Source: Okamejei kenojei (taxonomy: Eukaryota). Taken from it: a stretch of 64,000 bases of DNA. The stretch spans positions 20,460,001 through 20,524,000 of the forward strand of contig CM069156.1 in NCBI GenBank assembly GCA_035221665.1, given 5' to 3'. Below, in pieces: positions 3,737 to 64,000 of this stretch (position 1 is the stretch's first letter; the number at the start of each line of letters is the position of its first letter). The position numbers and the translations under genes are program-made. The notes under the pieces were generated by a model that saw only the letters and a list, made by a program, of their open reading frames with translations, did no database searches and was not told where the DNA came from.

Positions 3737-4170
3737 TGTGAGGAATAAATGAAGGGATGGGAGACCATTGCAGAGCCTTCTCTTTCCACTGGGGGGGAAC
3801 AGGCACTGGTTATTGACCTGCCTGTGAATGTCAGTCATGTGGCAACTAAGAATATCTGAATTAATCAAAATCTGCGTTATTATTGTTGTACCTTTGACAA
3901 ATGTTCTGAAGCATATCATTCAAAAGTTGACCCAAGTAAGCAAATATTTAAATAGTTACTGAAAGATTAGTTTTAAGGAAAGAATTAGCAGATGAAAAAC
4001 AAGCATTTTACTGAGGTGGGGGGGGGAGTCTGGATTTCAGAGTTTAGAGCATGGACAGTAAAAGGCAAATGATATTAACTAAATCATTTTGAGATGTATC
4101 ACTTCAGCTCATTTGCAATATAATGCAATCATCTTACACAGAGGAGAGTTGCTCTTTTAATAATCATCAT
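3737..4170 (+). repeat. Local duplication, copy 1 (paralog at 9119-9570)
   Basis: Colinear match starting TGTGAGGAATAAA...GAGACCATTGCAGAGCCTTCTCTTTCCACTGGGGGG. Confidence 0.85.
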
Positions 4171-5299: not shown

Positions 5300-5714
5300 G
5301 AGCAGGTTAACCTATGATGAGCGTTTGTCGGCACTGAGCCTGTACTTGCTGGAGTTTAGAAGAATGAGGGGGGACCTCATTGAAACATTCAGAATAGTGG
5401 ATAGAGTGGATATGGAGAGGATGTTTCCATAGTGGGAGAGTCTAGGACTAGTGGTCATAGCCTCAAAATTAACAGACGTTCTATTAGGAAGGAGATGAGG
5501 AGGAATTTATTTAGTCAGAGGGAGGAGAATCTGTGGAATTCTTTGCCGCAGAAGGCTATGGAGGCCAGGTCAGTGGATATATTTAAGGCAGAGGTAGATA
5601 GATTCTTGATTAGTACAGGTGTCAGAGGTTATGGGGGGAAGGCAGGAGAAGGCAGGAGAATGAGGTTAGGAGGGAGAGCGAGATCTGCCATGATTGAATG
5701 GCAGAGTAGATTTG
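5300..5714 (+). mobile_element. CR1-type LINE 3' end, interrupted by a later insertion; resumes at 6790-6836
   Basis: Translation ESRTSGHSLKI...FSQREENLWNSLPQKAMEA..VDIFKAEVDRFL is a CR1 ORF2 C-terminus; tail GATGGGCCGAATGGC...(TATGACC)n lies at 6794-6836. Confidence 0.85.
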
Positions 5715-6789
5715 TGGCGCGGTGCTGCCTGGTAGCTGCGGCTCACCTGCAGTCCGTCTGTTTTTTAGGGGGGGGGGGGGGTGGGAGAAACAGGGTTTTA
5801 GTCCTAATGGCAGAGCTGGCGGCCTCGGAGCTATGGCGGCCTTCCAGCTTCCATCAGCGGTGGCGGCCCAGCTTCAGAGCTACTGTGCTTCAGCGGCGAC
5901 CCGGCTTCAGAGCTGCGGTGCTCCAGCAGCGACCCAGCTTCAGAGCTGTGGTGCTCCAGTGGCGACCCGGCTTCAGAGCTGCGGTGCTCCAGCGGTGACC
6001 CGGCTTCAGAGCTGCGGTGCTCCAGTGGCGACCCGGCTTCAGAGCTACTGTGCTTCAGCGGCGACCCGGCTTCAGAGCTGCGGTGCTCCAGCGGCGACCC
6101 GGCTTCAGAGCTGCGGTGCTCCAGCGGCGACCCGGCTTCAGAGCTGCGGTGCTCCAGCGGCGACCCAGCTTCAGAGCTGTGGTGCTTCAGCGGCGACCCG
6201 GCTTCAGAGCTGCGGTGCTCCAGTGGCGACCCGGCTTCAGAGCTGCGGTGCTCCAGCGGCGACCCAGCTTCAGAGCTGCGGTGCTCCAGCGGTGACCCGG
6301 CTTCAGAGCTGCGGTGCTCCAGCGGCGACCCAGCTTCAGAGCTGCGGTGCTTCTGCGGCGACCCGGCTTCAGAGCTGCGGTGCTTCAACGGCGTTCCAGC
6401 GGCGACCCAGCTTCAGAGCCGCGGGGCTCCAGCGGCGACCCGGCTTCAGAGCTGCGGTGCTCCAGCGTTCCAGCGGCGGACCCTGCTTCAGAGCTGTGGT
6501 AGTGTTCCAGCGTTCCGGCGACGGCGGTGGCGGCAGCCCGGCATCGGAGGCTTGGCCACGGGCCTAGTGGACGACAACATCGGAGGCCTGGATCGCCTCA
6601 GCGCAGAGGGAGAACAAGGAGGGAAGAAGACAAAGACTTTAAGACTTTTGCCTTCCACCACAGTGAGGAGGTGCCTGGTGAACCCACTGTGGTGGATGTT
6701 AAATATGTGTTTATTGTGTGTTTTGTTTTTTATTATATGTTATGACTGCAAGGTAACGAAATAAAGGATACTTTACTTTACTTTACTTT
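5715..6789 (+). mobile_element. Non-autonomous retroposon with internal minisatellite and (CTTTA)n tail
   Basis: Splits a CR1 3' end; ATTTG on both sides (5710-5714, 6790-6794); AATAAA followed by (CTTTA)4; shares a 3' motif with 46590-47312. Confidence 0.65.
5856..6500. repeat. GC-rich minisatellite, 33-bp unit, about 19 copies
   Basis: Unit CAGCGGCGACCCGGCTTCAGAGCTGCGGTGCTC; gives 11-aa periodic ORFs on both strands. Confidence 0.95.
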
Positions 6790-7281
6790 ATTTGATGGGC
6801 CGAATGGCTTAATTCTACTTATGACCTTATGACCTATGGTCAGAACTGCATGCAGTACGCCAGCTGAGATTAATCAGTGTTTTATAAAGTTGGCGGATAT
6901 CCACCTTTCTATAGTAATTCCCCAACTAATGAAGGCCATTATCACAGCATGTCTACATACCTGCCTGCTACGTTTAAGGATCAAAGGTCATTGTGATCCT
7001 CAATACTCCTTAGGATTCCATCCTGGAGTGTTATGTCCTAGCCAATACAATAATAATAATACCAGTTTCTTACCAATTTTTGTTTAACATGTGCGAGTAT
7101 CTTGCTCTTTCGTCAATTGGAATTATTTAGTCTTCTTCGATCTTAAGGTTATCCAATTTGAAATCACCAGCAGATTGTGTTTTTAGTGCTTTGAAGAATG
7201 ATACATTTTTGTGTCATGCTTTGTGGGTTGTGCAGTGACACCATCATGAATGCTTTTGTGGCAAGTAATTCAATAAGTTAC

Positions 7282-7462
7282 ACCGAGTTATTTAGCGGGA
7301 CAGGCAGCATCTATGGATAGAAAGAATGGGTGACGTTTTGGGTCTCAACCCAGAACGTCACCCATACCTTCTATCCAGAGAAGCTGCCTGTCCCACTGAG
7401 TTACTCCAGCATTTTGTGTTTACCTTTGGTTAAACCAGCATCTGCTGTTCCCTCACACACAC
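7282..7462. mobile_element. Penelope-like terminal repeat, fold-back copy
   Basis: GGGTGACGTTTTGGGTCTCAACCCAGAACGTCACCC forms the centre of an inverted repeat. Confidence 0.7.
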
Positions 7463-8325
7463 AATGTTGTTCGCTTGCCTCTGTGATCAAGTTGTTTCCC
7501 CTGAACTGTATCTAAGTTAGGGTGTGGATTTGAATTTGATGTGGTTTTTTTTTTTTTGGTTCACTTTAAAATACACTGCACAGTCTGAATAGTTATGAAG
7601 CACTGCATTAGCTAAAAGGCAATTCCAACAAAATGGTTGAGTTTTCCACATGATTACACTGATTTCCTTCAGCAGGATATTATTTAGTGTGGATGGCAGG
7701 CACCGCAGCAAATGCACTGCTTTAAATTCTGCTCATCTCCCTGACTATTGTTGTCTGTTGATGGCTTTGAGAGAAAGAAAATCTACCCAGGACTTTCTTC
7801 TCTCTGCTGATTCTATTCAAAGCATTTTCCTGCAGATTTTCTCTATCTACTTTTTATTTTCTGAAAGTGACAATGATCTTGATAATTCAAATAGCATGGG
7901 CAGTTTGATATTCTTTCCAAAGGTTTTGATATGCATCCTCTAATAATCTGTGCTTTCAGCTCTTACTCAGTATCAAATAGTTCAGATTTTGCAGCAATTC
8001 GTGTCAGATAGTGCAATATTAATCTATTGCTTCTATTGCTGCTTACCTTTTGTGACAGAGCACAATCACCTCACATACCATTTGTGCGGTGGTAATACCT
8101 GTTATTGATCTATGTTGCAAGTGAAGGTATTCCATACACATTGTGTTTTGTTTCTCATCTGTAATCTAAATCTTGACATTTTCCCTTCTGACGCACAAAC
8201 CACTTTCTCAGTGGGACATAATTGAAGACGGCTCAGAATATCTGTTGAAGATTGTGAGATTAGCATGGTCGACTCCATCTGAACAGGTTGTGAATGCATT
8301 GTAAGTGCACTACTGAGCTCTAAAA

Positions 8326-8935
8326 TGTAGAAACAAGGAACTGCAGATGCTGGTTTACAAAAGAAGACACAAAATGCTGGAGTAACTATAAAAGAAGACC
8401 CAAACTGCTAGAGTAACTCAAACGCGTTGTGTCTTCTTTTGTAGATGCTGCCTGACCTGCTGAGTAACTCCAGCACTATGTGTTTAAGAAGGAACTGCAG
8501 ATGCTGGAAAATCAAAAGTAGACAAAAATGCTGGAGAAACTCAGAGGATGAGGCAGCATCTATGGACCGAAGGAAATAGGCGACGTTTCGCTGTTGTCTT
8601 TTGTAGATGCTGCCTGACCTGCTGAGTTACTCCAGCACTTTGTGTTTCTTTTGTATCCACAGATGATGCCTAGCCCACTGAGGTACTACGGTGCTTTGTG
8701 TCTTCCGCTAAGCTCTACTTTTTATTCAAAGCTATATTATTGATGTTAGTTAACTTATATAAGTTAGTATTAAATAGATTAGATGTGGAAATGTATGTTT
8801 TCCTTGGCAGTTGCAGGGTTGAATGATGAGCAGTCTCAATTGCAATCATGGACAGACAATTTGGGTCGGGACCCTTCTTCAGACTAAAGAGCCCTGACCT
8901 GAAACATCATCTGTCTATTCCCTCCACAGATGCTC
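8326..8935. mobile_element. Cluster of Penelope-like terminal fragments in alternating orientations
   Basis: Repeated GGAACTGCAGATGCTGG, ATGCTGGAGTAACT and GATGCTGCCTGACCTGCTGAGT blocks. Confidence 0.65.
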
Positions 8936-9118
8936 AATGGTTTCAATGGTATCGGTAGTTTATTTATTATCACGTGTACCAGGTACAGAGAAATACATTT
9001 TTTGCATACAGATCATCAAAACTATCCCCGTACATAAGCACAATCTCCCCAAATCAGTACATTATGCACAGAACAGCTCACTGAATCCATCTGCAAAAGG
9101 CACCATTTTGGCACCGTT

Positions 9119-16289: not shown

Positions 16290-16630
16290 TACCGAAGACA
16301 GACACAAAAAACTGGAGTAACTCAGCGTATCAGGCAGCATCTTTGGAGAAAAGGAATAGGTGGTGTTTCGGGTCTAAACCCTTCTTCAGACTGAGAGTCA
16401 GGAGAAAGGGAAACGAAAGATATAGACGGTAATATAGAAAGATCTAGAACAAATGAATGAAAGATATTCAAAAAAGTAAGAAAGTAACGATGATTCGGGG
16501 GAGGTAAAGTCCACAATGGTCCATTGTTGACTGAGGGCTAGGAGTTAAAGAGTTATACTGAGGATGAAACTCAATAGGATGACAGTGAAAATAGTATGAT
16601 GACTAGGGGTCAGTTCCTTCCTCTACATAA
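16290..16630 (-). mobile_element. Longer Penelope-like terminal repeat with hammerhead-like core
   Basis: Minus strand reads TGACTCTCAGT-CTGAAGA-AGGGTTTAGACCC-GAAACACC at 16400-16362. Confidence 0.65.
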
Positions 16631-17689: not shown

Positions 17690-18539
17690 TTAAAAGATAA
17701 TTGATTATATGGAATATTGATAGAAATGAATTTGTATAATTTAAAATATTAAAAGGGGCAGAACAAGTAAAGATAGTTGGGGGAAAAGATTTGATTTAAA
17801 CGAGGAAGCACGTTGCGCAGCTCATAGCTGGGTGCATATCGCTAAGGTATCATTGGTTGAAGAAGGGTCTCGATCCAAAACCTCCTTCTCTCCAGATCTG
17901 CTGCCTGTCCCGCTGAGTTACTCCAACTTTTTGTGTCTGTCTTCGGTTCAAACCAGCATCTGCAATTCCTTCCTACACATTGGTTGGACACAGTTCTGTT
18001 CAATTTTACTGCAACAGTAGATACAGAGATGTGCAACATAATTGTACTGCGTAATTACTTCGTTTTGTGGTGAACACTCCGTCTTTTCACTTCAATAAGC
18101 CTGACCTGTAAGAACTGTTGAAGTAATTTATATTTACATTTTGGTGTATCTTGGAACTAAACCGTATTATATCAGGTTTATGTGGTTACTGTTACTTCTT
18201 TCCTTAATTTTATATTAATTTGAGCTCACTCCTAATTCCATCAAGAATTCCTTTATTGTCATAATTGCATAATTGTCCTTTTTTGATGTACTGCACAAAA
18301 CACTCTGCCACTGATGGCTGTGATTGCCATAATCCACTGCTGAGTGGGTAGAAATCTCTGCTATAGCCATAATCATGATTGACAAATGCACTGTGCTGGC
18401 CTCTTTTAAACAATTGGATAAAGCTGTTTGGGAAATAATATAGGGCTTAATTTTTTATGAAGGCAAGAGAAAAGAAGTGTTAACGAGCTCACAAAGCATG
18501 TCGCTGCACCGACCTTGTTGTGCACTAATGAGCTGCCAT

Positions 18540-18860
18540 TTTCCACCCAGAGAGTTGTGAATTTGTGGAAAGGCAGTGGAGACCAATTCACTGGATTAAT
18601 TTAAATGAGTGTTAGATGGAGCTCTTGGGGCTAGCAAAATCAAGGGGTAAGGGGAGAAGGCAGGCACGGGCTACTGATTGTGGATGATCAGCCATGATCA
18701 CAATGAATGGTGGTGTTGGCTCGAAGGGCCGAATGGCCTCCTTCTGCACCTATTCTACAGAAGATAGACGAAAAGTGCTGGATTAACTCAGCGGGTCAGG
18801 CAGCATCTCTGGAGAAAAGGAATAGATTAAGTCTCGGGTTGAAGCACTTCTTCAGACCTT
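18540..18860. mobile_element. CR1 3' end (+) abutting a Penelope-like fragment (-)
   Basis: CR1 tail GGCTCGAAGGGCCGAATGGCCTCCTTCTGCACC, then GAAGATAGAC...CTTCTTCAGAC. Confidence 0.65.
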
Positions 18861-20239: not shown

Positions 20240-21570
20240 TCTTGGTGCAGCGATTCTGTGGGCGGTAGTATGGTAATCATCACTCCTGCAAGTGACCTAG
20301 AGTTTTGGAGAGTAGCCAAAGTTATTCCCCTGATTAAGAATTAGAAAATGGATCATCCAGGAACGTATAGGCGATTATTGGTTTCACGTCTTTGATAAGG
20401 AAGCTATTCGAGATATTACTTAGGGATAGGATTTATTCATGTTTGGAAAAAAATGGGCTAAATTAAGGTCAGTAGGCATGGATTTGTCTGCGGCAAGTCA
20501 TGTCTTACAAACTTGATTGAGTGTTTTGAGAAGATGAGGAAGGTGATTGATGAGATAAGGACAGTGGATGTAATAGATTGGCTGGTAAGTTTGCAGACAA
20601 CGCAAAGAAATTGGTGAAGTTGCAGACAGTAAAGATAGGCAGTAAAGAATACAGCAAGATATAGATTTGTTACAAATATGGGTCGGGAAATAGCAGAAAT
20701 CTAGGCAAGTGTGAGATGTTGCACTTTGAGAGGCCAAATGTAAGGGGAAAGTGAACATTTGATGGCAGGCCCTTTCACAGCATTGATGTACAGAGACTTC
20801 TCTGGGTACAAGTCCACAGCTCCGCGAAAGTGGCAACGTAAGGCGATAAAGTGGAAAGATGGTATATGGTAAGCTTGCCTTCATTCTTTGGGGCACTGAG
20901 TGTAAGAATGAGTGGGTCATGCTACAACTTTATGAAACTTATGAACACATTTAAAGTATTGTATGCAGTTCTGGTCACCCCATTACAGGAAGGATGTGGA
21001 GGCTTTGGGTGTAGAAGAGATGATTAGCGGGTGTTAGCTATAAGGAGAGGTTGGACCAACTTGGAATGCCGCAGGTTAAGGGGAGAAATTGGATGTTTAT
21101 AAAATTGTGAGATAGACGTAGATAGGGTAAACAGTCAGAATCTTTTATTTTCAAGATGGAAACGTCATAGACGATGGGGCATAGCTTTAAAGTGAGTGGA
21201 AAAAGTTGGCCCTATAGCAGAAGAGTCCACGTCACAGGGCTGGAAACTGGAAGTATCCTGAGATAATTCTGCTACCACCGTCATCTATTGCAACCTGCGA
21301 TGGCTCCCACTGATTGTCGCCGGAAGCTTGCGTCCTTTTCAGGTCGGACGATGACAGCGAGGTCAACATTTGAAACATGGACGATGGACACGAAAGAAGA
21401 AGTGAAAAAGTTGAAAAGAGATGAGTGGGGCCAGTTTTTTTTATACAGAGTAGTGGGTGCTTCTAACAAGTTGTCAGGTGGAAGCAGATATGAGGCTTTT
21501 AGATAGGCACATGAATATGCAGGGAATGGAAGAATATGGACCATGTGCAGGCAGAATGAATTGGTATCTT
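20240..21570 (+). mobile_element. Highly decayed CR1-type LINE
   Basis: Degenerate RT and 3' motifs (CATGGATTTG...TCATGTCTTACAAACTTGATTGAG; GCAGTTCTGGTCACCCCATTACAGGAAGGATG). Confidence 0.65.
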
Positions 21571-23309: not shown

Positions 23310-24010
23310 AGAAAATTGTGACACAGGTAGATAGGGTAGTGAAGAAGGAATTTAGCATACGTCTTTATATACAAGTGTATTGAGTATACGATTTGGGGCG
23401 TCATGTTGCAACTTTACAAAAGATTGGTTAGACCACAGGATATTATTACCACACTGTTAGAAAGATATGATTAGCATTAGAAAGAGTATAGAAGATATTC
23501 ACCAGGATGTGGCCTGGAATGGTGTGCTTTAGTTACAAGGAGGGATTGAATATGACTGGGGATAGACACAAAAAGCCGGAGTAACTCAGCAGATCAGACT
23601 GCATCTCTGAAGAAAAGGAATAGGAGACGTTTTGGATCGAGACCCTTCGTCAGACACATTGTTGGGATGAGACAGGGATTGTTAGTGGAACACAGATTGA
23701 GGGGTGAATTTATGGTGGTTTACAAAATCATAGGGGGCATAGATTGGGTAGATAATCACACACTGGAAGACATAGTGAGGGGAAATATTTAAGGGGAATC
23801 TGAGGGACAAACCTTTCACACAATGTGGTGAGTACATGGAATGAGCTGCCAAGGGAATTGGTAGAGACAATTACATGCACTTGGAAGGTACATGAATATG
23901 AAAGGATTAGAGGGATTTGGGCCAAATGCAGGTAAATTAGATTAGGATAGATAGACATCTTGACGGCATGGACAAGTCAGGCTGAAGAGCCTGTTTCCGT
24001 GCTGCATAAC
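23310..24010 (+). mobile_element. Decayed CR1 3' region interrupted by a Penelope-like fragment (23560-23656, minus)
   Basis: CR1 3' motifs; the insert reads GTCTGACGAAGGGTCTCGATCCAAAACGTC on the minus strand. Confidence 0.6.
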
Positions 24011-24230: not shown

Positions 24231-24800
24231 GTGTATCTAAACCATCAGTGGAAGCAGTACACAAACTCACTCTCCGGAGAGTAATGCATGAATTCTGCTT
24301 TCCTATTAGTCTGACTGCAATCCTCTCAGTCCACAGGTTGCCAGTTTTGATGCAGTTGTTTGCCAGCTGCATCTTCTCCTTCAAACTCATCTGACAATGC
24401 AGTTAGCAGCAATTATAGAAATGACGGTGATGTTCGGAATGCTGATTCCGAAATGTCACCCATTCCATCTCTCCAGAGATGCTGCCTGTCCGGCTGAGTT
24501 ACTCCAGCTTTTTGTGTCTATCTTCGGAATGCTGATGACGGAAATGTTTTGAATAGTAGAAATGGTGGATTCATGCAAGTTCTGATGATAATACTGGCTG
24601 TACTCTGGAACAATTTTATGTACTGCATTGAAAGTGATCACTTGAAAACGGGAAACAAAAATCTGAAAATTGTCCAAAGTTCATTTGGTTTCTGAATACC
24701 AGCTTAGTGTCTTCTTAATAGCTTTTCCTTCAGAACACTTAGAAAGGTGGAAAGATGAAAACATTAAGACACACAAAATATTGTATTAATATGATAAACA

Positions 24801-24830: not shown

Positions 24831-25348
24831 AATAAAGTTTAATATTGATCCAACAACTAATTTGGTAACACATTTATATGATCATGTCAAAGCAAAAGAT
24901 ACACAAGGGTTATGAGAAATATGCAAAGTGGACATGGACTAGAACCACTGCCTGTAAAGGTGGTACAAAGTCATTCCGTGATTCTGAGGCACTTGAAAGA
25001 AAATGATGGTCTCATTGTATGCTGTAATCATTTAATGATTTATGATTTTAACTTTTGAAAAGTTCAAAATTATTTTTGCCAAAGCCTAGAATATAAACAG
25101 AAATTATTTAATAATCTGACTACAAACTATTGAGACAATAAGTATGATTAGCTCATGCCCATTTAATTGCATTGGTGTTAGCTGGTGGTAATGGTTGACT
25201 ATTGTGATCCTGCAGTAGCTACCTCAGTACAGTATTGTGCTAGCTACTTTGGATCAGGCCAGTCTATCAGTGCAGTTCTGGGTATTATGTGCTGTCTTGG
25301 TGCATTGCCTGCTATTTGAGACGGGTACACTCTTCTTTGCTACGGCAG

Positions 25349-25538
25349 TCACTTCTTTGTTGCTTCATTTGTCTTCTTTGAATCCTGCACTCCAATCTCA
25401 GCTTTAGTCTCGTAGGTAATAGGGATGGTGACCTCAGAAGACTGCAGAGCTGGTTTGACCATTGATGCTTCGACCGTTAGCACACCAGTGGGTGACAGTG
25501 TTGAAGAAACTATACCAGGGTCGATGCCTTGAGGGAGG
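25349..25538 (-). CDS. HSPB1: Heat shock protein beta-1 (HSP27), exon 3
   Basis: Acceptor CTTTTCTTCCCCTCCATTTCAG; encodes LPQGIDPGIVSSTLSPTGVLTVEASMVKPALQSSEVTIPITYETKAEIGVQDSKKTNEATKK* (end of alpha-crystallin domain plus IXI motif); TGA at 25351-25349; 190 nt. Confidence 0.96.
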
Positions 25539-25829
25539 CTGAAATGGAGGGGAAGAAAAGGTTAGACTGAACAATATTATTAAATGCATCAATAATAACT
25601 GCTCGCAACCAGGAATTGAGTGACAGACAACAAGGCCTTAAAATTAGATTTCCATCTAAGAATCAATCACTTTAATAATTACACCTTTAAGACAAATGTA
25701 ATACTTGTCCTAATGGGCAATTTTCTGTGCAGACACTAATTCTGATGGTCATGGATTGGACCAGACAATTTAATGTTAAATATAAATCATTACTCTTTTG
25801 TGCCAAGAGGGAATTTCTGGTGACATTTA

Positions 25830-26745
25830 TATTTAGATGAAGGGATTCAAAGTAACATTAGCAAATTTGCAGATGACAGAGGGAGGTAGTGTGAACTGTG
25901 ATGCTATGAGAATGCAGGGTGACTTGGACTGGTTGGGTGAGTGGGCAGATGCAGTTTCATGTGGATAAATGTGAGCTTAGCAAAAACAGGAAGGAAGATT
26001 ACTATCTAAATGGTGTCAAGTTGAGAAAAGGGGAAGTACAAAGGGATCTGGGGGTCCTTGTTCATCAGTCAATGAAAGTAAGCATGCAGGTACAGCAGGC
26101 AGTGAAGAAAGCTAATGGCATGTCGGCCTTTAGAACAAGAGGAGTTGAGTATAGGAGCAAAGAGGTCCTTCTGCAGTTGTATAGGGCCCTACTGAGACCA
26201 CACCTGGAGTATTATGTGCAGTTTTGGTCCCATAAATTGAGGAAGGACATTCTTGCTATTGAGGGAGTGCAGCATAGGTTTACAAGGTTAATTCCCGGGA
26301 TGGCGGGACTTTCAGATGCTGAGAGAATGGAGCGGCTGGGCTTGTATACTCTGGAATTTAGAAGATTGAGAAGGGATCTTAGTGAAACATATAAGATTAT
26401 TAAGGGTTTGGACATGCTAGAGGCAGGAAACATGTTCCCGATGTTGGGGGAGTCCAGAACCAGGGCAACAGTTTAAGAATAACGTGTACGCTATGTAGAA
26501 CGGAGGCGAGGAAACACTTTTTCTCACAGAGTTGTGAGTCTGTGGAATTCTCTGCCTCAGAGGGCGGTGGAGGTTAGTTCTCCGGAAACTTTCAAGAGAG
26601 AGCTAGATAGGGCTCTTAAAGATAGCGGAGTCAGGGGATATGGGGAGAAGGCAGGAACGGAGTACTGATTGGGGATGATCAGCTATGATCACATTGAATG
26701 GCTCGAAGGGCCGAATGGCCTACTCCTGCACCTATTGTCTATTGA
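25830..26745 (+). mobile_element. 5'-truncated CR1 LINE in HSPB1 intron 2, antisense to the gene
   Basis: ORF 25919-26476 (RDLGVLVHQSMK..YRALLRPHLEYYVQFWS); tail CTATTGTCTATTG. Confidence 0.92.
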
Positions 26746-28359
26746 AATAAAGCTATGCCACAACTAGTTGATTTAAAAAAAAACAATCAAAAACCCAGTA
26801 GCCTTCATTATAAATTGTGGACATTCTATATTGAGTAACGCACTATGAGGTTTCTCAAACAAGTCCGCGATAATGAAGAGTGTTTCTGCCAGTTTGTCAA
26901 CTGTCCAGCATCCTCAGATTGACACGGCAGTTTAAATAGTTGTACATAAAGTGTGGGAGAAATGTTTCCCACAACCCTCTCTCTTGTATACAACAGCAAA
27001 AAGTTGGTTGAAATGATCTGCAAAGCCAATGTAGAGGGGAAAGCATTAAGAAGAAATAGATAGAGATCTTAAAATGGAATTGGGGTACAAGTGAATAGGT
27101 AAAGCAAAAATCAACAATTCATTCGCTGGACTCAGTGGGGCTTTCGGCCTTCCACAAACAGCAACAGGGGACTTTTATTTTCAATGGCAGTTTTGGGAAC
27201 AACTGGTGCCTCCAAAGACCAGTATTGAGATCATTCTCTCTCAGATCTAATAAAGACACATACACATTGGACCACTTAAAAATTAAGTAGGGCTTAGTTA
27301 GAAATTGTTCGATGGGTGTTTATTCGATGGAAATGCAGCCACCGATTCTACTTTATGGCAGGGATTAGAAGGAAATGTGAGCTGGATATATTCACTTTGC
27401 AGGAACATCGGTGCTTTGAAATCAGAAATGAATGTAAATATTGCATGGATGTGCAAATTTATACCCACAAGAGTTTTCATGATCAAGGTGCTAGAAATGT
27501 AGAAGGTCATACTTTGTCTTGATTCTGTATCTTATTGTATTGCAAATTAAATGTAAAATATGGCCTGCAAAGCTCTTTTTGATAAAGCTGTAAAATACAC
27601 TGGAATGTAGAGATCTGAGGTGAACCTGGTCTATTGAATAAACTGTTATTGATAGTTGGTTTCATGTTTTCAGGATGAATGTAATGTAGTAATTACCAAT
27701 TGTTAATATTGCCTTTGCTGCAGACGTAAGATTTTAACTTGCAATAAAAGCACAATGACTGAAAAGCCAATCACTCAGAGATAAATTTATGATTTTAAGT
27801 CGATATATCTGTACTAAAGTAATCTGGTGATAAAGGAGTTGGGGATGACAGGAAGAAGACCAGTTTAAAGAGTCCATTGTTTAGGTGGAGATGGTTTGAC
27901 TGTGGGTCCAATCGACAGGGTGAGACATGTCAGAGCTATGGTCAGCTTCAGTACCTGGGGAAAGGAGTTGGGGGACAACAGACAGTCAGTGGTGTGGAAG
28001 AGGTGGTATCAATTCTACAGCCAGGATTAGGGGTCAGGGTGGTCATTGATCGTGGAGACGGTGAGCGTGGTTTGATGATGAGATGGTGGTCAGGTGAGCA
28101 GGCAGGCATTCAGTAGTAAGTGAGTCGACGGGATGGTGCATGGCAGCCTTGGCAGGTGTTGGGAACGTGAGAGTATGTGGGGGAATGGTGATTAGTTCCA
28201 GGGAGCAGTGTGGGTGGCTGGAGCCTATGGGAGAGCAGGGTGAGTATCACTTTTGAAGCACACCTACTCGTGCACCTCCCCATGCACCCTATGTCAGGCA
28301 AAAGCAGCCACGAAATTTGATAAATGCTTGTAATATGATTTATAAAATAATTCACTCAC

Positions 28360-28423
28360 AGATATTTTCGAGTAAAACATCTTGAAATGAAGCCATGTTC
28401 ATCTTGTCTCTCCTCATGTTTGC
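28360..28423 (-). CDS. HSPB1: Heat shock protein beta-1 (HSP27), exon 2
   Basis: Acceptor TTTGCAG, donor GTGAGT; 64 nt encoding (G)KHEERQDEHGFISRCFTRKY(L); phases join exons 1 and 3 in frame (391+64+190=645 nt). Confidence 0.97.
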
Positions 28424-28969
28424 CTGCAAAGGAGAATTATTGAACTAATTTTAGCTGTTAAAAAAAAGTTATAAAGACCATAGTCATAGAGCTATACAGC
28501 ATGTAGGGTGTATAGAAGGGTCTCGATCCAAAACGTCACCCATTCATTCGCTCCAGAGATGCTGCCTGTCCCGCTGAGTTACTCCAGCATTTTGTGACTA
28601 CCTGCAGCCTAACTCGTCCATACCGACCAAGTTGCCTAACTGTGCTAGCCCAAAATGCCTGCTCGTGGGCCATATTCCACCAAACCTTTCCTATTCTTAT
28701 AGTCATCCCAGTGCCTTTCAACTATCATGATTATACCCACCTCTACAACCTCTTCAGGCAGCTTATTCATTAAACTTTGTGTCAACCTGTTTCCCTGCTG
28801 GTCCATGCAGTGTCTTTGTTCTACAAGATCAGACATGGTAAATCACCATAATTCACAGGTAGTGCTAAATATTTTTTCCGTGAGCATATTCATTTATTGC
28901 AAGAGAATACTTCCCAGTATTAGCCGAAAATTAGACACTTGAAAATAAAACAAACTGTTTAAAACAAGT

Positions 28970-29490
28970 TATCATGAAATAGAACAACGAGCACCACAGC
29001 TAAAAGAACAGGACTTTCGGCTCACACCTTCTGTATACCGAACATTATGGCCAGTTAAACTCATCTCCTCTGCCTGCATGTGATCCATTCCCTGCATATC
29101 CATGTGCCTATCTAAAAGTCTCTTCAATGCAACTATTGAGTATGCTTCCCCCCTCTCCCGCCTCCCGGCAGTTTGTTCTAGGCACCCACCACTCTGTGTA
29201 AAAAAAATACTTGGCCTGCACATGCCCTTTAAACTATTTCCCTCTAACCTTACATATGCCTTCTAGACATTACCCTGTCTATGCCACTCATAATTTTATA
29301 CACGACTATAAGGTCATATCTTAACCTTCGACGTTCCAGAGAAAATAATCAAATTTTTGCCCAATCTCTCCTTATAGTTAACATCCTGTAATTCAGGAAG
29401 TATTCTGGTAAACTGCTTCTGCAGCCTCTCTACAACCTCCGTATCCTTTATTTAATGGGGTGACCAGAACTGCACAAAATACTTTAAATG
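28970..29490 (-). mobile_element. Decayed CR1 3' region in HSPB1 intron 1
   Basis: CR1 3' motifs (LKRLLDRHMDMQG; GACCAGAACTGCACAAAATACT). Confidence 0.6.
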
Positions 29491-30009
29491 CGTCCAAATA
29501 GTCTGGAGAAGAGTCCTGACCTGAAACATCGCCTATTCCTTTTGGATACAAGTTAAATAAATGTTGGCACATTCACTTGCTATTACTGAACTTTATTCCC
29601 CATGTGAGAAAAATATTGTTGTTCTACGGTGATACTGCAAGAAAAGATTATTACCGGACTTCACAGAATTCAGTAACAGCAATGGCACCCACGGTAGAGG
29701 TGTGTCAATTCAATAATACCAAGGGCTGGGCTGTTTCAGAAGGACACAGGGGTGATGTTATAATCTCATGATAGGCATTGTGTCGAACCTATGTTGTGTA
29801 GAGTAGACTTGGTGCTTTAGGCAGTGATGTTCAAATCCTACTGTTCCCAGGGTAAGCACTATTCCAACCCTACTGTGTTCATGTGGGAACTGTTCCAAAC
29901 CCATAGTGTACAAGACAAAGATCTCCCACTCCCATAGTCTACAATGTACAACGCGAGCCCCTGCATTGTCGTGTTTTAGACCCACTGCCAGCTTTACTGC
30001 AGAATGGGA

Positions 30010-30350
30010 ATCTCCATATTGTCTAGACCCGGCAAGGGTGGATTGCCATGAGCGGGGACAGGGTGGGGGTGGAGGGGGGGAGACCAGAGGAGGACTCGGC
30101 GATGGGGGAGAACAAAGGAGGTGCCGGCATGGGTGAACTGCCGTGAAGATGGTTGGGGGGGGGGGGGGGGGGGGGGGGGGGAGAGCAAAGGAGGGCCTGG
30201 TGCGGGATACTTTACCAATACCCTTTATGTGGTGACTATTTGCATACCTTGGATATTTCTCCATATCTTCGAGAATTTCACTGTGACTTGTCACATTTGA
30301 CAATAAAGTATTAATTAATTCATCACATTCCATTCCACAATACATTCCAA
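30010..30350 (+). mobile_element. Non-autonomous retroposon fragment with G-run and Rex1-like tail
   Basis: ATTTCACTGTGACTTGTCACATTTGACAATAAA followed by (CATTC)n; G homopolymer at about 30154-30181. Confidence 0.4.
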
Positions 30351-30827
30351 GCGTTAGTTTTCAGTCAGCACCACTCACCCCAACAGAACAGAATGGAATA
30401 TTCCCAGTGCTTAGATTTTAATATCATTGTGATTTAAATGTTTTTGTTTAATTTGTCCAATTGCCTTGTTCCAGATGTTTTGGATCAGATGGGGAGTCAA
30501 GTTAACCAGATCACAATGTTACTGATTGAGAGATGAACACAACGCAGAGGTGAACCCCTCAACAGGCACAGGTAATCATTTTAGTTTTTTTTTAAATTTT
30601 GAACTATTATTCTTAAGTTATTTTTTGAATATTTGTGCCAATTACCGATAAAGAATAGGGTAAGGTTCTAATTTAAGTTATTGTTCATAACATTTCTCGC
30701 TTAGAATACATACTAAGAATACATACTAAACACAATGACAATTGAGTTCCAGCAAGACGGTGCATGGACATCAATGCAGACGGAGTAAATATCACCCAAA
30801 TGGTCACCCCGGGAAGAATTAGATGGG

Positions 30828-30925
30828 AGATAGACACAGAATGCTGGAGTAACTCAGCGGGGCAGGCAGTATCTCTTACTCCAGCATTTTGGTGTAAACC
30901 AGCATCTGCAGTTCCTTCCCACACA
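30828..30925. mobile_element. Short fold-back Penelope-like fragment about 50 nt inside HSPB1 intron 1
   Basis: ATGCTGGAGTAA ... TTACTCCAGCAT inverted pair, then AAACCAGCATCTGCAGTTCCTTCC. Confidence 0.65.
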
Positions 30926-30973
30926 CTAGTTAGATGGGGTTGAAGTTGCCCGCTGTTAGCGGCGCTTGCCTAC

Positions 30974-31364
30974 CGTTGATCTCCACATATCCATCCTTGG
31001 TTTTGACAGTGATCTCCTCGGGAGCGAATTGGTTGACATCCAAGTTGACCCTCCACTTGTCCGAGGTGACTTTGATTTCCGAGATGCCGGTGCTCTGCTG
31101 GCGGCTGAGAGCAGCGGCGGCGGTGGGCGCTGGACTTTGCACCAGCGGTTCCGCCGCCGCCGCCGCCGCCGGGGCCCTGGCACCAACTGCAGGGAAGGGG
31201 CGAAGGTAACCCGGCCACATGCCCTGCCAGTCCGCGCCCCAGTCGCAGCCCAAAGCCGGCATGCCGAATGACTGGTCGAAAAGCCGGCTGGGGTAGTGCC
31301 AGTCCCGGAAAGGGTCCCAGCTGGGGCTGCGCAAGAAGCTGAAGGGAATCCGCCGCTCGGACAT
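30974..31364 (-). CDS. HSPB1: Heat shock protein beta-1 (HSP27), exon 1
   Basis: [72 protein letters not shown](G); donor G|GTAGGC at 30973; CpG-rich. Confidence 0.97.
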
Positions 31365-31431
31365 GCCTGGAATTGGAGGTGGGCGCAGGGCTGGGCAGCA
31401 AGGCGTGCTCGGCGCTGGTCAGGACCGGGCT

Positions 31432-31545
31432 CTTATATATCTGCTGCCTGGTCTATAAATGGAACAGGTGCCCCAGTATAGGGGAACAGTCATTGTTGTG
31501 GAATGCGACCGGCTTCCAGAGCCTTCACACTGGGAAGCTTCCAGT
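31432..31545 (-). promoter_or_regulatory. HSPB1 proximal promoter: TATA box and heat-shock elements
   Basis: TATATAAG on minus at 31439-31432; HSE-like cTTCc-aGAGc-cTTCa at 31513-31527 and gGAAg-cTTCc at 31533-31542. Confidence 0.7.
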
Positions 31546-31555
31546 GCCCTTTAAT

Positions 31556-31677
31556 TGTGTAGGAAAGGAGAGGGAACCGAACAGCAAGGGTAGACACAAA
31601 ATGCTGGAGTAAGTCAGCGGGACAGGCAGCACCACTAGAGAGAAGGAATGGGTGACGTTTCGGGTTTAAACCAGCAT
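31556..31677 (-). mobile_element. Penelope-like terminal fragment bounding the HSPB1 promoter
   Basis: GGTAGACACAAAATGCTGGAGTAA...GAATGGGTGACGTTTCGGGT. Confidence 0.65.
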
Positions 31678-35750: not shown

Positions 35751-36429
35751 TACCTCTAGAAACAAGGAACTGCAGATGCTGAGTCATTAATAAAAAGATA
35801 CAAAGTGCTGGAATAAGTCAACAGGTCAGGTACCATCTCTGAAGAACATGGATAGATAACTTTTTGACTCAGGACCCTTTTTCAGATGCTTTACTTATGA
35901 TGTTTGTTTATCACCTTTGAGCAGGTGCAATCAATATGCTATCAATATTTTAAAAGAATTGTATTCTGAACATAGGGTATCATCTCATACTTATGTCAAC
36001 ACAGAAACAAACCATTCAACCCTTCAGGTCCACGGCAATTGCCAAGGGTCCAATCCAGTCCCATTTCTTTCCTGTTTACCTGTCTCACTGCAATTTATTC
36101 TCTCACCATGCCCAGCAATTCTCCTTTGATTCTATTTTGGTTTTAGTTTTAATCTATATGAAGGGTAATTTACAGTTGCCAATTAACCTATCATATAAAA
36201 TGACAGTTGTCACAACTGAAATTGGAACTTTTGTAAACTCCGTCAGAACAGAAATCTCAACAGAGACAGGAAGAGCTAAACATAACACTGTTTTTTGAAT
36301 GATAGTATGTTTAATGAAGGATGCATTTCCTTGCCCCACGTTTCCATTCCTTCTCAAAGATTTGTTAGAAAGATTTCTATTTTTATTTATTTATCAGAAT
36401 GCTGTCATCGCTTGCTAGTTGAGCAGCGG

Positions 36430-37460: not shown

Positions 37461-38302
37461 GGAGCTGACTTTTAAAACGAACAATGTCCTGCAAGGTTAG
37501 TGTCCACAAATTAGCTTTTCTTTCTGTGTTGTGTGCTCTGTAATTTCAGCTGAATGTGAGGAGGCACATGAGCAGCTCTAGTTAATTGTAACTCTACTTG
37601 CCACTGACTTGGTGCATGGAGACCTGAGCAATTGCGAGCCAAGTATTGTGCTGGAATCAGTACCGTAGCACAGCAAGACGTATGTGGCAATTAAAGGTTT
37701 GGAACTAAGCTTCTGTACACAATTCAATTGATTGCTTGGATATTGCTGCTCAGAATTACCAATGAATGCTATTATACTGCAGCCACAGTCCACACACCAC
37801 AGGGTATCTGGGATTTTGACTGACTGGTCCTTCTGTGAATAACATCGGTATAATTCTTGCCACTGGGCTATTTTTAGCTTTGCACGGTGAGTGCGTGAGT
37901 AATGGACCACTTTAATCCATCAGCCGTCCAATGGGGGACCAAGTTGAGAAGTGAGTTTAGAATGTGAATGTGCATTAAGGTAATAAAAGTTGTATAAGGC
38001 AACAAAGAAGCTAAAAATAAAATCATTCCACTCTGGGGTCGACTGCAGATTTTTCATCCTTATTGATTTTTAAGGCATAAAATATTAGCCACTGATGTCA
38101 GGCTAATCGATAAAATCAATTTAGAAACTAGGAAATGCAGATGCTGGTTTACCAAAAAGGACACAAAGTGCTGGAGTAACTCAAAGAATCTGGCAGCATT
38201 TCTGGAGAACATAGAAGGATGTTTTGTGCAGGAAAGAACTGCAGATGCTAGTTTAAAGCAAAGATAAAAGGATTTCCCATGATTTTGGAGACCAGAATGG
38301 GT

Positions 38303-42329: not shown

Positions 42330-42860
42330 TAGTCATTTGCCAATTAACCTGAATCCACCTATTACTTGTCAGTTCTTGTTCCACCCTTCCCACTCACTAC
42401 CAGCTATCTCTTCTTTATTCCATCTGTCTGAAGAAGGGTTCCACCCCAAAATGTCATCTGTCCATTCCCTTCCACAGAAGCTGTGGAAAATATGACCCTC
42501 TGAGTTTCTCCAGCAGTTTGTTTTCGGTCAAGCGTCTAGCATCTTCAGTCTCTTGTGTTTTTGGAAGGTCAGAGTCTTTTGCCCAGGGTAGTGGAGTCTA
42601 AACACAGATGGCAGAGATTTTTGAGAAGGGAAAATTTTAAAGGAACCTGAGGATCAGGTTTTTCACTCAGAGAGTGTGGTGAGCATTCAGAATGAGCAAC
42701 CAGAGGAAGTGGTAGAGGGGGTACAACTGCAATGTTTAAAAACATTTGCATGGGTTCATGGATAGGAAATGTTTAAAGGGATAAGGGCCAAATGCCACTA
42801 ACTCTGACAGGTACCTTAGTCAACATGAATGAGTTGGGCTGAGGGCCCTAGTCTCCAAGT
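42330..42860 (+). mobile_element. Penelope-like terminal fragment (42330-42560) followed by a CR1 3' end
   Basis: CTGAAGAAGGGTTCCACCCCAAAATGTC at 42428-42455; CR1 3' motifs from about 42570. Confidence 0.55.
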
Positions 42861-43615: not shown

Positions 43616-44580
43616 TTCCCATACCATAGCTGTTGGGAACACTAAGGTTGTAGAGGGTGCTCAAGAAATGCAAGTTATTTTCATTCTTTACAGATGAAAA
43701 TGTAGAACAAAAAGGACTACAAGGATTTAAAGCATGATAAATAAGGAACACTGCATTCCTTGGTTTATGTTACCCTTGATTTTTCATTTGATCAATTTTT
43801 TGTAGTAATGTTGCTCTGTTATTGACACTGCTGGAAGATCTGACGTTGAGTTCCCACTGCGTGAACTGGAGCTGAAGGAGGAACCAAGGTCCTATTATTA
43901 GCATGCGGAATGGATTGAGAAATATTTGTATCACAAACAAGTCCAGTTTCCAGTTGCTAGTCTGTGCGCCACCAAACAAAATCTAAAATAAAAATAGAAG
44001 GTTCTGGAAAGCTGCAGTAAGTGGATCGGCATCTGACAGCAAGATTAATGATTAGATTGAATTGTTGAATGGATGTCAGCCACCAGACCTTATTCAATGG
44101 GGCTGCCTGCAGAAGTCGGTGTGAGAAGGCATAACGATCAGTGTCTTCATTCCCTGACTAACCGCCTGAATAAAACATGACTGACTCTCAGTAGACCCGT
44201 TCCTGCCTACTTAAACTTCCCTGCACATCCATCACAACTCTGGCGATGTTATCTCACTCAGTAGAATACGGGTAATTATCGTGTAAAAAAAAACCTTTCA
44301 AATTTGTTTCCGCGCTCAGATGATATTTCACTACACTTTATCCAGTCCGTCCATATCAGTTTCTAGAATGTGTCATTGGGAGCAGGTCAAGATATCTTCC
44401 ACTAATAGCATTTTCCATTTTGAAAATTGTTTTACGACGTCAAACTTATGTCATTACAGTAAAGTACTAATTTTGTTTAGGCAGAGATATAATATAGAGC
44501 TAGAATGAACTGGCAATAGCTGTAAAGGCGTTCGTGGGCATGGATATGTTAAGGAGTGGGAAAGGGCGCGTTAAGGGGCA

Positions 44581-44794
44581 GGTAGACGTAAAATGCTGGA
44601 GTAACTCAGTCGGACAGGCAGCATTCGCTGGAGAGAAGGAATGGGTGACGTTTCAGATCAGACCTGAAGAAGGGTCTCGACCTGAAACGTCACCCATTCC
44701 TTCTCTCCAGAGTTGCTGCCTGTCCCGCTGAGTTACTCCAGCATTTTGTGTCTATCTTTGGTTTAAACCAGCATATGCAGTTGCTTCCTACACA
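44581..44794. mobile_element. Penelope-like fold-back element with intact hammerhead core
   Basis: Left arm 44583-44659 is the reverse complement of about 44679-44754; core CTGAAGA-AGGGTCTCGACCT-GAAACGTC. Confidence 0.75.
44664..44691 (+). ncRNA. Minimal type I hammerhead-ribozyme-like motif
   Basis: CUGANGA box, stem II GGGUC/GACCU, GAAA box, palindromic ACGU, GUC cleavage triplet; stem I is weak and activity is unproven. Confidence 0.5.
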
Positions 44795-45189
44795 ATGAAA
44801 GGGTAGGGTTGTGCAGTTGTGTGTAAGGCTCCACAGGAGGGATATTTTATCATTATTCGATAAGACACCAAGGCAGCACAATAGACCAGGCCTTGGAGAT
44901 TTGTGTGCAGAGGGCTGTTTCCACCACAGAGAGTGGAACTCGCACAGGAAATCAGTCGGGCTGTGGGGAGCGGGGTGTGAGAGAGGATTGCAGGCAGAGA
45001 ATAGTTGGGAGAGATGGTGGAGGGAACAAAGGAATGTAAATAATGGTGGAGAAAATTAGTCAGGGGAGACACGATGGATCGGTGGTTGTCAGGAGTGGTC
45101 GGAGGAGCCACCAAAGGTCATTAACAGCAAGAGGTGGAGTAGTTGAAAGGAGTTACCACTAATAAAAATAATTAAGGGACCTTCCTCAA

Positions 45190-47312: not shown

Positions 47313-47606
47313 TTGAAAGTCATGGCGGTTTGGTTCCATGTGAGGTCAGGCCAGAATACAACGACCAATGAAGGAACTTATCTTATAGGGAGTCCCTTTC
47401 TACATAACCCAAAAATATAGATGGTTGATGATCCAAGAACAATGTCATTCAATTTCCTACTCGTGTAAAGACCTCATTGGGAATGATGTAACCGAAGCTT
47501 GTTTCCCATATTTTTGATGAGGGCTGATACACAGCTGGGAGCATCCAACAACATTAAGTGTGAAAATAAAAATGTTGTCGCTGTAATTTGTGACCTACTG
47601 TTCCAT

Positions 47607-47712
47607 GAGTCCTCACATTTTACACCACCAGCCTCTGCATCCAACACATTCTCTGACATTTTCACCACCGTCAACGTGATCCCAACACTAGTCACACCTT
47701 CCCTTCTCCAGC
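47607..47712 (+). mobile_element. Penelope ORF fragment (RT to GIY-YIG linker)
   Basis: Degenerate match to VLTFHPTSLRIQHI.RHFxHxQRDPxTSHxFPSP. Confidence 0.5.
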
Positions 47713-54799: not shown

Positions 54800-57700
54800 C
54801 TGAATGAACGGGGACACCAAAAACAAACAAGGAAAAGAGACAAGAATGAAGCTGGGTTAGTTACGACTCTACACAGAGTACGGGTATTAAAATGTTGCTA
54901 CTTATGTCTTTTAAATACAGCGGGCAGATTTTCCTGCTCTGGGCATCTGGAGCTTTGGGACATGCCTTACAAGGGACAAACATGTCCTTCTCCAAATTCT
55001 CTGCCCAAACAATCTAAAGGCATCAGGCACCAATGCAGGAAAAGTTGCTCAATATGGTTCTTCCCTTCAAATAATTGCTGGGATTTTCAGACACATTAAC
55101 AGGAAACATTAGTTCCACAAAGATGATATGTATATAGACTTTTGTTAGCACATACGTGATGTCTGATGTGTTCAGTAATCCAGTCTTTTAAACAAGTCTG
55201 ATTCTTTAGAAACCTGGCCTATGTCCAATTTAGTATCTGCATTTATGTCAAAAGAACCAGAGTGAATATGAAGATATTTTGCTTTTACAGTAACATCTGA
55301 AAAACATCACTTTAAATGATGGTTTGAACAGACCAAATAATTATGTTCAAATGTGAATTAGACATGCATTTATAAGAGAGAGGACTATTTGAATATTAAT
55401 ATTAATCTTGAACATTAATCTTAGTTTGAACTAGGGAATTGCCATGTTAACAATTGTCAGTATTTCATAGAGTATTTTGATTTGTTTGTGTTTACTGTTA
55501 TTGGCTTGAAACATTAACCTTGTTCCTCTTTCCACAGATGCTGCCTGACCTAAGCATTTCCAGCATTTCCCTTATTTCTTGATTTTATTTCAAATTTCCA
55601 GCATCTGCTGTGTCTTACTTTTTGATTGCTGTTTATTTAATTTATTTTTTATTAGAATGCAATTAATTAAACTTGTCAGTTGTGACTTTTGGATAGTCCA
55701 GGGACAACTGATGAGATCAGAATTGGTTTAGGCTCTCATGCCCCATGATTCAATAGCTTCACCAATTAGAGCCTAGGCTCACATAAACCAGAGGCCTGTT
55801 GTCAGCTATAGAACCAATATCCTGCATAAACTAGAGGAATGGGGAGAAAACTAGACAATCAATCTGGTGCATTATCTCAAATAAGCTTTAGTAGGCCACA
55901 AATTGTTCACAAAGTGCTGGAGTAACTCAGCACATCAGGCAGCATCTCTGCAGAACATGGATAGGTAATGTTTTGGGTCCGGACTCTTCTTCAAACCCAA
56001 AACATCACCAATCCATGTTCTTCGGAGATGCTGCCTGACCCACTGAGTTACTCCAGCACTTTGTAAACTAGCATCATCAGCTTCTCGTTTCCACTGAGTA
56101 GGCTTTGTTTGATGCAATTAGGCAATAGGCCTCTTTAAATAGTGACCTCTTGTCAAACTCACCAAAAGACTGGATTGTACTTTTGAACACAGATTATGTT
56201 CTGGTGTGCAATGGTAATTAACAAGCAATGTAATTAGAAAGCCTCCATAAAGCCAGACTCAATTATTGAAAAGAGACAATTGAATTGCTTCTGAAAATGT
56301 CAACCAGTGAAGATTATAAAATCTATATGAATACAACGTAATTAAAATCACTGGTAGATTAGAGATTTATTGCATATGAAGAAATGCAATCTGAAAAAAA
56401 AAAATTCAGGAGTCCGATAATCATGCCTTGGCTTTTCAAAATTTGCAAATTAGGCAAATCATCAAATTACCAGATTAGAAGAAACATAGACAAGACAAAA
56501 TCAACTCTAAGTCATCTCTATCATTTTGTGTCAGTGTTTTCCACAGAGCTCATTGAAGCAACAGCTCAGCCTATTATAAAATACCAGGTTTCATCAATTC
56601 ACCAGCTATCAGTTCATATAATATATTAATAGGAAAGTAGATATTCATAAAAGTGACATGTAGTTACACTGCACCCAACTACTTACAGCCACTCAAAATG
56701 ACCGATTTCAATTAAGGTCAAGAAATGAATTATTTTAACTTTGTATATATGTGGAGAACACTGAAACATTGCACATTTCATTTGATTGTGAGCGCAAAGT
56801 TCATTGAAAGCTATTTTATCGGTATTAATATGTAGAAGTTACAAAAATGATTAGTTGAAAGCCTGTGGTGTCCTTCGGAAAGATCAGGTACGCCAGGTCT
56901 ACGAGAAGTGAATATAACATTGGTTAGTAAGCATGTTAGATTAGATCAGAGAGGGCCTGCTCAGTGGGGTGGGAGTCAATTCCAAAGATTTATCAAACTG
57001 ACTAGAATGTTTGTCTGTCATGTGGGAAGGAGAAATTCCAAAGGCATTTACTAATATTCCTTCCTGCAATAAAACCACGTAAAACTAGTTTCCAAACATT
57101 TTCTGCTGAAAAAAACTTGTTTAAGATATTTTGTCTTATTGTGTCTTATAACTTACAGACAACAGTTCAAATTAGGAGACTTGGTAATTGAAATGTTTCC
57201 GGGGTTAGCAGTATAGTAGAGCAAAGTGGAGATACCAATGATCCAAAAAGCTATTAGCATTCAGCTCATTTGCCTTTTCCTTTGGGTCTAAGTGTTCTGA
57301 AATGAATGCTACCACGTGAGCAGGTTTAGAGTATTTACTGATGTCTGAATTTTCCTGCCTTCAGTATGCCGAATTGCTAGCAGTTCAAAATGGAAATAAA
57401 ATGCAAATTAAAAAAAAGGTGAAAGTGTTATTTGGAAAAATGGGCAAAACGAACATGAACTGCTTTCAAATGAGGATTCTAAGGAATTTTATGAAATATT
57501 CACCAGTGAGCAGTCCTTCATAAACTTGCAGCCCCAAAGAGCAAGACCATAATCTGTTAGTTGGATGTGCAATTTGCTGCTGTTAGCAAGGAAGCAAAGA
57601 TTCAATTTTGTACAAGATCAGATCTGTACCAGACTCAGATGATGTCCATGTGGGATGCCCTTTGTTCTACATTGTACCTTTTAATGTTTATTCTATATAA

Positions 57701-63535: not shown

Positions 63536-64000
63536 TACCGAGGTACAGTAAAAAGCTTGTTGCATGTTATCCAGTCAGCAGAAAGATAATACTTGATTAC
63601 AATCGAGCCATTACAGCGTGACTCAATTGTAGGAATTTATCCCCGACATTATTTAGACTGTTAATACAAATTTAATTGAAGTGCAATAAAACAAACTGCT
63701 GAAAGAACTCGGTGGCCCAGGCATCATCTGTGGAGACAGGGATGATGGATGCTTCAGGCTGCGACATTGCATCAGAAACTGACACAGGGCTGGACCTATA
63801 ATATTGGTCACTCCTCTGCCTCCATAAATGCTGCCTCTGCTGCTGAGTTCCTCCAGAAGCGTGTTTTTTGGTCCAGATCACAGTACCTTCAGACTCTTTA
63901 ATTGAAGTGCATATTGTTCCATGTTCTACATATATCCTCACAGGGCATTTGCCGGTGCTTTTAGGAGGTATAAACTCTCTTAAGAGAGGGCCTGGGACCT

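Follow-up and report, generated by a model that had tools for sequence, protein, structure and literature searches.

Head-to-head end pieces of a Penelope-like element with a minimal hammerhead motif, and what their ends suggest about insertion

The locus at 44580-44795 of the window (the whole 64-kb stretch of DNA analysed here) consists of two head-to-head copies of one unit of about 95-130 bp, arranged as inverted arms. Judged from its sequence, the pair is decayed and can fold back on itself, and its members are short end pieces of a Penelope-like element (PLE). We are largely confident that the locus descends from a head-to-head pair laid down by an endonuclease (EN)-bearing PLE with a minimal type I hammerhead, through internal starts of the reverse transcriptase (RT) on the leader. 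The sequence-only reading recognised a dispersed Penelope-like repeat here, but the short repeat is the end piece of a 4-kb element and not a separate element. It also took the focal repeat as one copy; the pair of inverted arms had not been reported earlier.

The left arm (44580-44664, minus strand) is an inverted copy of the pseudo-LTR (pLTR) leader, running from about +9 to +94 counted from C3 of the hammerhead. It has the short 3' end, its core is truncated, and an alignment of 86 columns puts its identity to the right arm at about 86%. The right arm (44664-44795, plus strand) extends from C3 to about +132 and has the long end with the optional PLE tail of about 35 bp (44759-44795, plus strand; compare PMC11167929), which in the full-length element leads into the long reading frame. 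This arm shows 93% identity to L143, an ORF-linked copy in the same subfamily. No convincing duplication flanks the focal copy; the best match is 7 bp and lies 13 bp off the arm.

The focal core reads CTGAAGA-A-GGGTCTCGACCT-GAAA-CGTC at 44664-44691 of the plus strand. That it is intact, as had been claimed, was borne out by the sequence and by a mismatch search, and all boxes are present. The box C3-A9 (CUGAAGA) is followed by an extra unpaired A (44664-44671, plus strand), which is typical of PLE hammerheads according to the consensus in PMC4209133. A stem II hairpin of 4-5 bp occupies 44672-44683 (plus strand). Its closing pair is G-U in the focal copy and G-C in the majority of the family, and the G-U pair probably arose by CpG decay. 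The GAAA box, a palindromic ACGU that replaces stem III (44687-44690) and C17 complete the motif (44684-44691, plus strand), with the predicted cut after 44691. The flanking bases, C ahead of the core and A behind the cut site, leave the focal copy unable to form a stem I. Folded as RNA, the inverted pair reaches -153 kcal/mol (z = -18; none of 200 shuffles was as stable), and in the predicted fold stem II has a pairing probability of 0.0, the arms pairing with each other instead. With the arms paired mutually and stem I missing, the focal hammerhead is predicted to be inactive.

Sequence shared upstream of many cores encodes an RT, a Cys-rich linker and a GIY-YIG nuclease. In the full-length copy L178 (G000:C6:42872001-42882000, minus strand), two 495-bp direct repeats that are 99.8% identical, each with an intact core, enclose a stop-free frame of 1197 codons. 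The repeat is therefore a PLE end repeat. Its 5' copy continues through the tail into the frame, its 3' copy ends at the short end, and the element is flanked by a 14-bp duplication. The frame carries YIDD and LIY/YIG motifs and matches the Pfam families RVT_1 (E 4.5e-6) and GIY-YIG (E 0.004), both below the curated cut-offs. Relatives at E<=1e-20, 1460 of 7990 scored candidates, are mostly unnamed and mostly share its Pfam architecture. A C-x4-C-x2-C linker is visible between RT and EN in the translations; a CX2-5CxxC linker is a feature of the Neptune clade as defined in PMC8557442. On these features we assign the element to the EN+ PLEs, with an ORF joining an RT to a C-terminal GIY-YIG domain; judged by the linker, which Nematis shares, it is probably Neptune-type. 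The proposed linkage of the repeat to a Penelope RT plus GIY-YIG ORF was thus found in the full-length L178 and in five of the 30 exact-match loci of the focal subfamily, where RT/EN coding sequence lies directly upstream on the same strand. Only L178, among 15 long loci examined, has both direct pseudo-LTRs; the 5' repeat is missing from the others. A short decayed piece of the same ORF lies in the window at 47600-47710 (plus strand; 71% identity over 38 aa), with no adjoining core. Literature searches found no paper on the focal PLE family, which may well be catalogued in repeat databases.

A genome search with the Pfam GIY-YIG model returned mainly another PLE family. It yielded 20 loci, with an intact focal-family core only in L049, as a separate neighbour. 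The second family (L056/L057, G000:C43:8000-27999) has a unit of about 6.3 kb, an RT about 28% identical and an extra upstream ORF, and forms head-to-tail arrays, many of them near contig ends. Each unit carries an unrelated hammerhead, which by inspection has a stem III of 5 bp and a stem I of about 7 bp and is predicted to work as a monomer. L056 gave no Rfam match at E<=0.01.

The earlier description of the family as very high copy is amply supported. A search of the 2.76-Gb genome found 48,215 exact copies of the 28-bp core (24,302 and 23,913 on the two strands; none for the reversed control) and 5,882 exact matches to a 37-mer of the focal subfamily. A hammerhead descriptor blind to the family, run over 600 kb of randomly chosen genome, matched 31 times, with 30 of the matches in the focal family, against 0-2 matches in five shuffles; in the window it matched the focal core alone. 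One megabase of random genome contained 469 arms, corresponding to about 380 insertions and 4.6% of the bases, and 85 box-intact cores. Extrapolated to the genome, this sample gives roughly a million insertions. The 48,215 exact cores far exceed the roughly 4,000-9,000 motifs given for coelacanth and Xenopus in PMC4209133. What the present family adds is scale.

In the window, three sites matched the core within three mismatches, against none in all 100 shuffles. The repeat had been said to occur at least 15 times, and this holds. We count 21 loci by blastn and 31 arms by nhmmer, and blastn with a reference library gave 29 arms, 12 of them forming six head-to-head pairs. Six further cores described as decayed are all present, although the one listed at 29504 is really at 29503. 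An Rfam scan of the window found no hammerhead family at E<=5. Reference-library blastn placed solo copies with decayed cores at 2978-3093, 17858-17986 (with the long end) and 42423-42521 (old), all on the plus strand; two minus-strand solo copies that start 2 nt before C3 and have the short end, at 18761-18857 and 23561-23655; a 5'-truncated solo copy at 24448-24524 (plus strand); an old solo copy of 74% identity at 35764-35886 (minus strand); two core-less fragments at 38132-38266 (minus strand); and a copy with a decayed core and 86 bp of upstream pLTR at 16300-16475 (minus strand). The same search found head-to-head pairs at 7285-7461, with truncated cores, and at 55907-56064, of an older subfamily. 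A short and a long arm form a pair with an 8-bp flanking match at 1386-1585. A fragment cluster at 8335-8899, seen by nhmmer and blastn, includes one more pair (8480-8645), and nhmmer detected two weak old fragments on opposite strands at 63690-63864. Elsewhere in the window, a dispersed element of about 195 bp at 21208-21400 (plus strand) begins with the first G of an HDV-like ribozyme (Rfam CPEB3_ribozyme, 29.4 bits) and ends in GAA repeats. CPEB3_ribozyme matches 12 of 14 related loci, four with scores that exceed the gathering threshold of 35. A first look at the genome gave 2,656 candidates, and start and end are common to the copies.

An HSPB1-like gene with three exons lies on the minus strand at about 25280-31450; exon 1 ends at about 30972, exon 2 spans about 28423-28357 and exon 3 is near 25500. 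Copies had been reported in the introns of HSPB1 and beside its promoter. Intron 1 indeed holds three, namely a solo copy antisense to the gene (28514-28603, plus strand), a core-only fragment (29500-29541, plus strand), both located by reference-library blastn, and a core-less head-to-head pair with an 8-bp flanking match (30819-30924), but none was found in intron 2. The copy beside the promoter was confirmed by the same blastn search at 31585-31665 (minus strand), about 140 bp upstream of the TATA box, and lacks the first box. GAA/TTC-type motifs resembling heat-shock elements sit between this copy and the TATA box. The density of PLE copies here, about 7-8 per 20 kb, equals the genome average; for this reason we tie no copy to HSPB1 function and regard a regulatory role as unsupported.

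The 469 arms of the 1-Mb sample comprise 251 solo arms, 178 arms in 89 head-to-head pairs and 40 arms that reach at least 25 nt upstream. Starts number 28 per nt at -4 to -1, against 1.1 per nt at -24 to -9, and 1.75 per nt at the cleavage site, where the seven of 469 arms starting at +27 to +30 represent no excess. The 3' ends form two clusters about 35 nt apart, near +92 and at +123-131, which match the two internal RT start sites of PAc, the Poseidon PLE of Anolis carolinensis (Frangieh et al. 2024, PMC11167929). In vitro that element initiates reverse transcription internally at two sites and extends both strands; it uses uncut RNA, and its hammerhead cleavage is protein-assisted (PMC11167929).

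Neighbouring arms form the 89 head-to-head pairs but only seven tail-to-tail ones. When 17 of the 89 pairs with an arm end outside both clusters are left out, 72 are classifiable, and 61 of these combine a long with a short arm (expected proportion 0.49, p 3e-10; 31/35 and 31/38 in sub-samples). Of 18 young pairs, which include two near-duplicates, 16 show the same combination, as does the focal pair with its short left and long right arm. Flanking duplications of at least 8 bp were present in 27 of 88 pairs, against a mean of 1.85 in shuffled pairings, and partner arms share a subfamily more often than expected by chance; most pairs are therefore single events. Kilobase-long inverted PLE insertions were seen at L182, L184, L191 and L192. 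At the first three an inverted copy with the tail and then an A-run accompanies a direct copy with the short end, the inverted piece of L191 being the leader only.

How might a single event produce two arms with different ends? Fold-back self-priming, of the cDNA or on an antisense RNA, could place the copies head to head, the tail difference then coming from the endonuclease as it resolves the intermediate. Such a process has been proposed in PMC3846280 and PMC8557442, the former explaining head-to-head junctions by self-priming on antisense RNA, and we consider it a serious possibility without thinking it probable. It would accord with the greater likeness of arms within a pair (85%, against 80% between pairs), and in 33 of 65 cases the own partner is in the top decile. 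However, either arm may be truncated: the long arm is truncated and the short one intact in 20 pairs, the reverse holds in 8, both are intact in 17 and both truncated in 16. The young pair L018 moreover mixes subfamilies, its arms having 16 and 0 differences from L178. In young pairs of subfamily A the arms share almost no private differences, and so speak neither for nor against one arm having been copied directly from its partner. We prefer priming on the two target strands at different start sites over fold-back self-priming.

The role of the hammerhead was examined in 187 of the 469 arms, namely those spanning the core to +85. Subfamilies were clustered on flank columns only, with internal divergence of 4.6-17% and one two-member cluster left out. 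The five subfamily majorities differ at one of 30 motif columns, in loop II, against 25 of 67 flank columns (Fisher p 3e-4), but clustering on the flank inflates flank variability and with it the significance, and some of the 25 columns reflect alignment shifts. With eight clusters instead, the smaller old groups show four motif differences, some resembling CpG decay. The CUGANGA(H), GAAA and NUH core is invariant across the five majorities and present in the focal copy, and the palindromic ACGU occurs in all five. The stem II closing pair G10.1-C11.1 is G-C in 114 arms and G-U in 32. Position 1.1 is A in 131 of the 187 arms and G in 45, both of which pair with U2.1. Helix I has 2 bp in source elements (U-R, G-C) and is absent from the focal copy. 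The motif agrees, as had been suggested, with the minimal hammerhead consensus of PMC4209133, which likewise has an extra base following A9, a stem II closed by G-C and the palindrome A-CG-U.

Individual copies give a different picture. Excluding CpG sites, which depart in 23.6%, departures amount to 219 of 2190 positions in the core (10.0%) and 1028 of 10839 in the flank (9.5%). The core boxes had been expected to be better conserved than the flanks; this fails in individual copies, as is to be expected of dead insertions, and is reversed between source subfamilies. Invariance among subfamilies together with flank-like decay in copies means that constraint acted in the source elements and not in the insertions, and selection on individual copies is ruled out by these counts. 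Many copies are indeed likely to be inactive, given neutral decay that has left the boxes in 74 of 187 core-spanning arms, but the poor stem I that had been blamed is a property of the source elements and not of decay. Stem II covariation, another expectation, was not seen: there is no compensatory pair among the subfamily majorities, the departures look like CpG or transition decay, and the family may be too uniform for covariation to show.

One might argue that the hammerhead is a relic without catalytic activity, or that it serves as a binding site for protein or as a promoter, its constancy reflecting this other role. Stem I is only 2 bp and the hammerhead fold is not predicted. In the leader of L178, ViennaRNA gives stem II a pairing probability of 0.004 or less, and in a co-fold stem II with an intermolecular ACGU dimer reaches -12.7 kcal/mol against -19.7 for the best alternative. 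Copy starts do not pile up at the cut site, 42 of 67 flank columns are invariant too, and hammerhead mutants of the Anolis element left insertion in vitro unaffected (PMC11167929). Against this, every consensus position of the core has been kept, and so have the additional nucleotide, the G10.1-C11.1 pair, the palindrome and the pairing at position 1.1, and a 2-bp helix I is listed for PLE motifs of D. virilis, Culex and Oikopleura in the supplement of PMC4209133. Published PLE hammerheads are also weak and need dimers or protein (PMC4209133, PMC11167929; PMC6765202 summarises Lunse et al. on dimer cleavage), so the unfavourable predicted folds do not refute activity. On balance we find a relic or other role rather unlikely; cleavage by the hammerhead of the end repeat is predicted to require a dimer or help from protein.

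The fixed 5' edge itself probably marks an RNA 5' end, most simply a transcription start in the initiator-like CAGT. A cap-derived extra G was looked for in a weak test by hand tally, and G was found in 36/100 and 44/100 cases (the first 100 places listed in each). All 24 sequencing runs listed are contigs. In the four that were compared, from one study, loose ends cluster 3-4 nt before C3, but these contigs are probably DNA and carry no information on expression, start or cleavage. A splice acceptor, formed by the pyrimidine tract and CAG|T, might also create such an edge, and splicing could then improve stem I. CAGT precedes the core in subfamilies with differing upstream sequence, and the intron end of D. 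virilis Penelope maps to helix I (PMC4209133, PMC2377424). We nevertheless judge a splice acceptor improbable. Solo copies have no upstream exon in common: in 18 of 43 solo loci a host duplication of at least 8 bp runs up to the 5' edge, ending 0-6 nt before C3. Of 53 joints between contigs (probably DNA) and the element, the 15 listed included no clean GT-AG joint.

It is very hard to credit that the 215-bp hairpin moves as a unit of its own, like a MITE or a SINE, despite its long inverted arms, the flanking duplications and the 89 pairs per Mb. The central junction varies from pair to pair, which rules out an independent MITE, and arm starts range from -8 to +104. Moreover, the arms derive from the pLTR of an element that encodes an RT, and long ORF-containing inverted copies (L182, L184, L191) have the same long and short ends.

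The scheme that we favour, with priming on both target strands, would run as follows. The element RNA would begin 2-3 nt before the hammerhead, and the RT would start inside it, either about 95 or about 130 nt downstream. Copying of the leader alone from uncut RNA would yield solo stubs. Where both target strands are primed, likely one per start site, the two cDNAs would join head to head; longer RNAs would give rise to ORF-linked copies. The hammerhead is constrained as long as it belongs to a source element; in insertions it is carried along as a passenger, and in the focal copy it is likely idle.

PLE end repeats with minimal hammerheads are an already known class. The focal motif resembles the minimal hammerheads of Cervera and de la Pena 2014 (PMC4209133) in CUGANGA with an extra base, a G-C-closed stem II, GAAA, A-CG-U and NUH, and the family resembles the PLE hammerheads described there in having one motif per pLTR, mostly as dispersed singles with some opposite-strand pairs. 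It differs from those motifs in its stem II sequence and in a stem I of 2 bp with U-R as the first pair, most of the published motifs having 3-5 bp; supplementary file 2 of that paper has no shark or skate entry. As in PAc (PMC11167929), the hammerhead lies near the pLTR/ORF junction, there are two 3' ends 30-40 bp apart, and insertions appear to derive from uncut RNA, here by inference from sequence. In contrast to PAc the ORF is longer and has a Cys-rich linker between RT and EN; the first Met is found 162 nt beyond C3, that of PAc being inside stem II. Inverted ends with a one-sided tail are likewise already in print (PMC3846280, PMC8557442): the Neptune and Nematis EN+ PLEs described there share the head-to-head inverted end, the tail at one end only, the duplications of 8-16 bp and the CX2-5CxxC linker. 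Unlike in those insertions, the commonest form here is the smallest possible, two leaders without ORF, at about 89 per Mb. Non-LTR retrozymes (bioRxiv 10.64898/2026.07.22.740005) are also non-coding, hammerhead-bearing and PLE-derived, but they are head-to-tail tandem arrays, whereas here an autonomous element has left scattered stubs. Only 14 direct same-strand adjacencies occur among the 469 arms, against the 89 head-to-head pairs, which does not fit a tandem organisation of the retrozyme type. Beyond the known class are the starts 1-4 nt before the motif instead of at the cut site, and the joining of a long with a short arm in 61 of 72 pairs.

With their fixed start and their pairing of a long with a short end, the copies give a hint of how the element is replicated. 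They also form an extensive natural collection of insertion ends for this class of retroelements. We put forward, tentatively and as less than probable, that the million or so stubs are a record of integration, in which the RNA starts at the 5' edge of the hammerhead and a dimeric enzyme primes the two strands at different sites. If this is true, the one-sided tail and the inverted end would be one event, and the unexplained tail and inversion of PLEs would become a directly testable model of two-strand priming.
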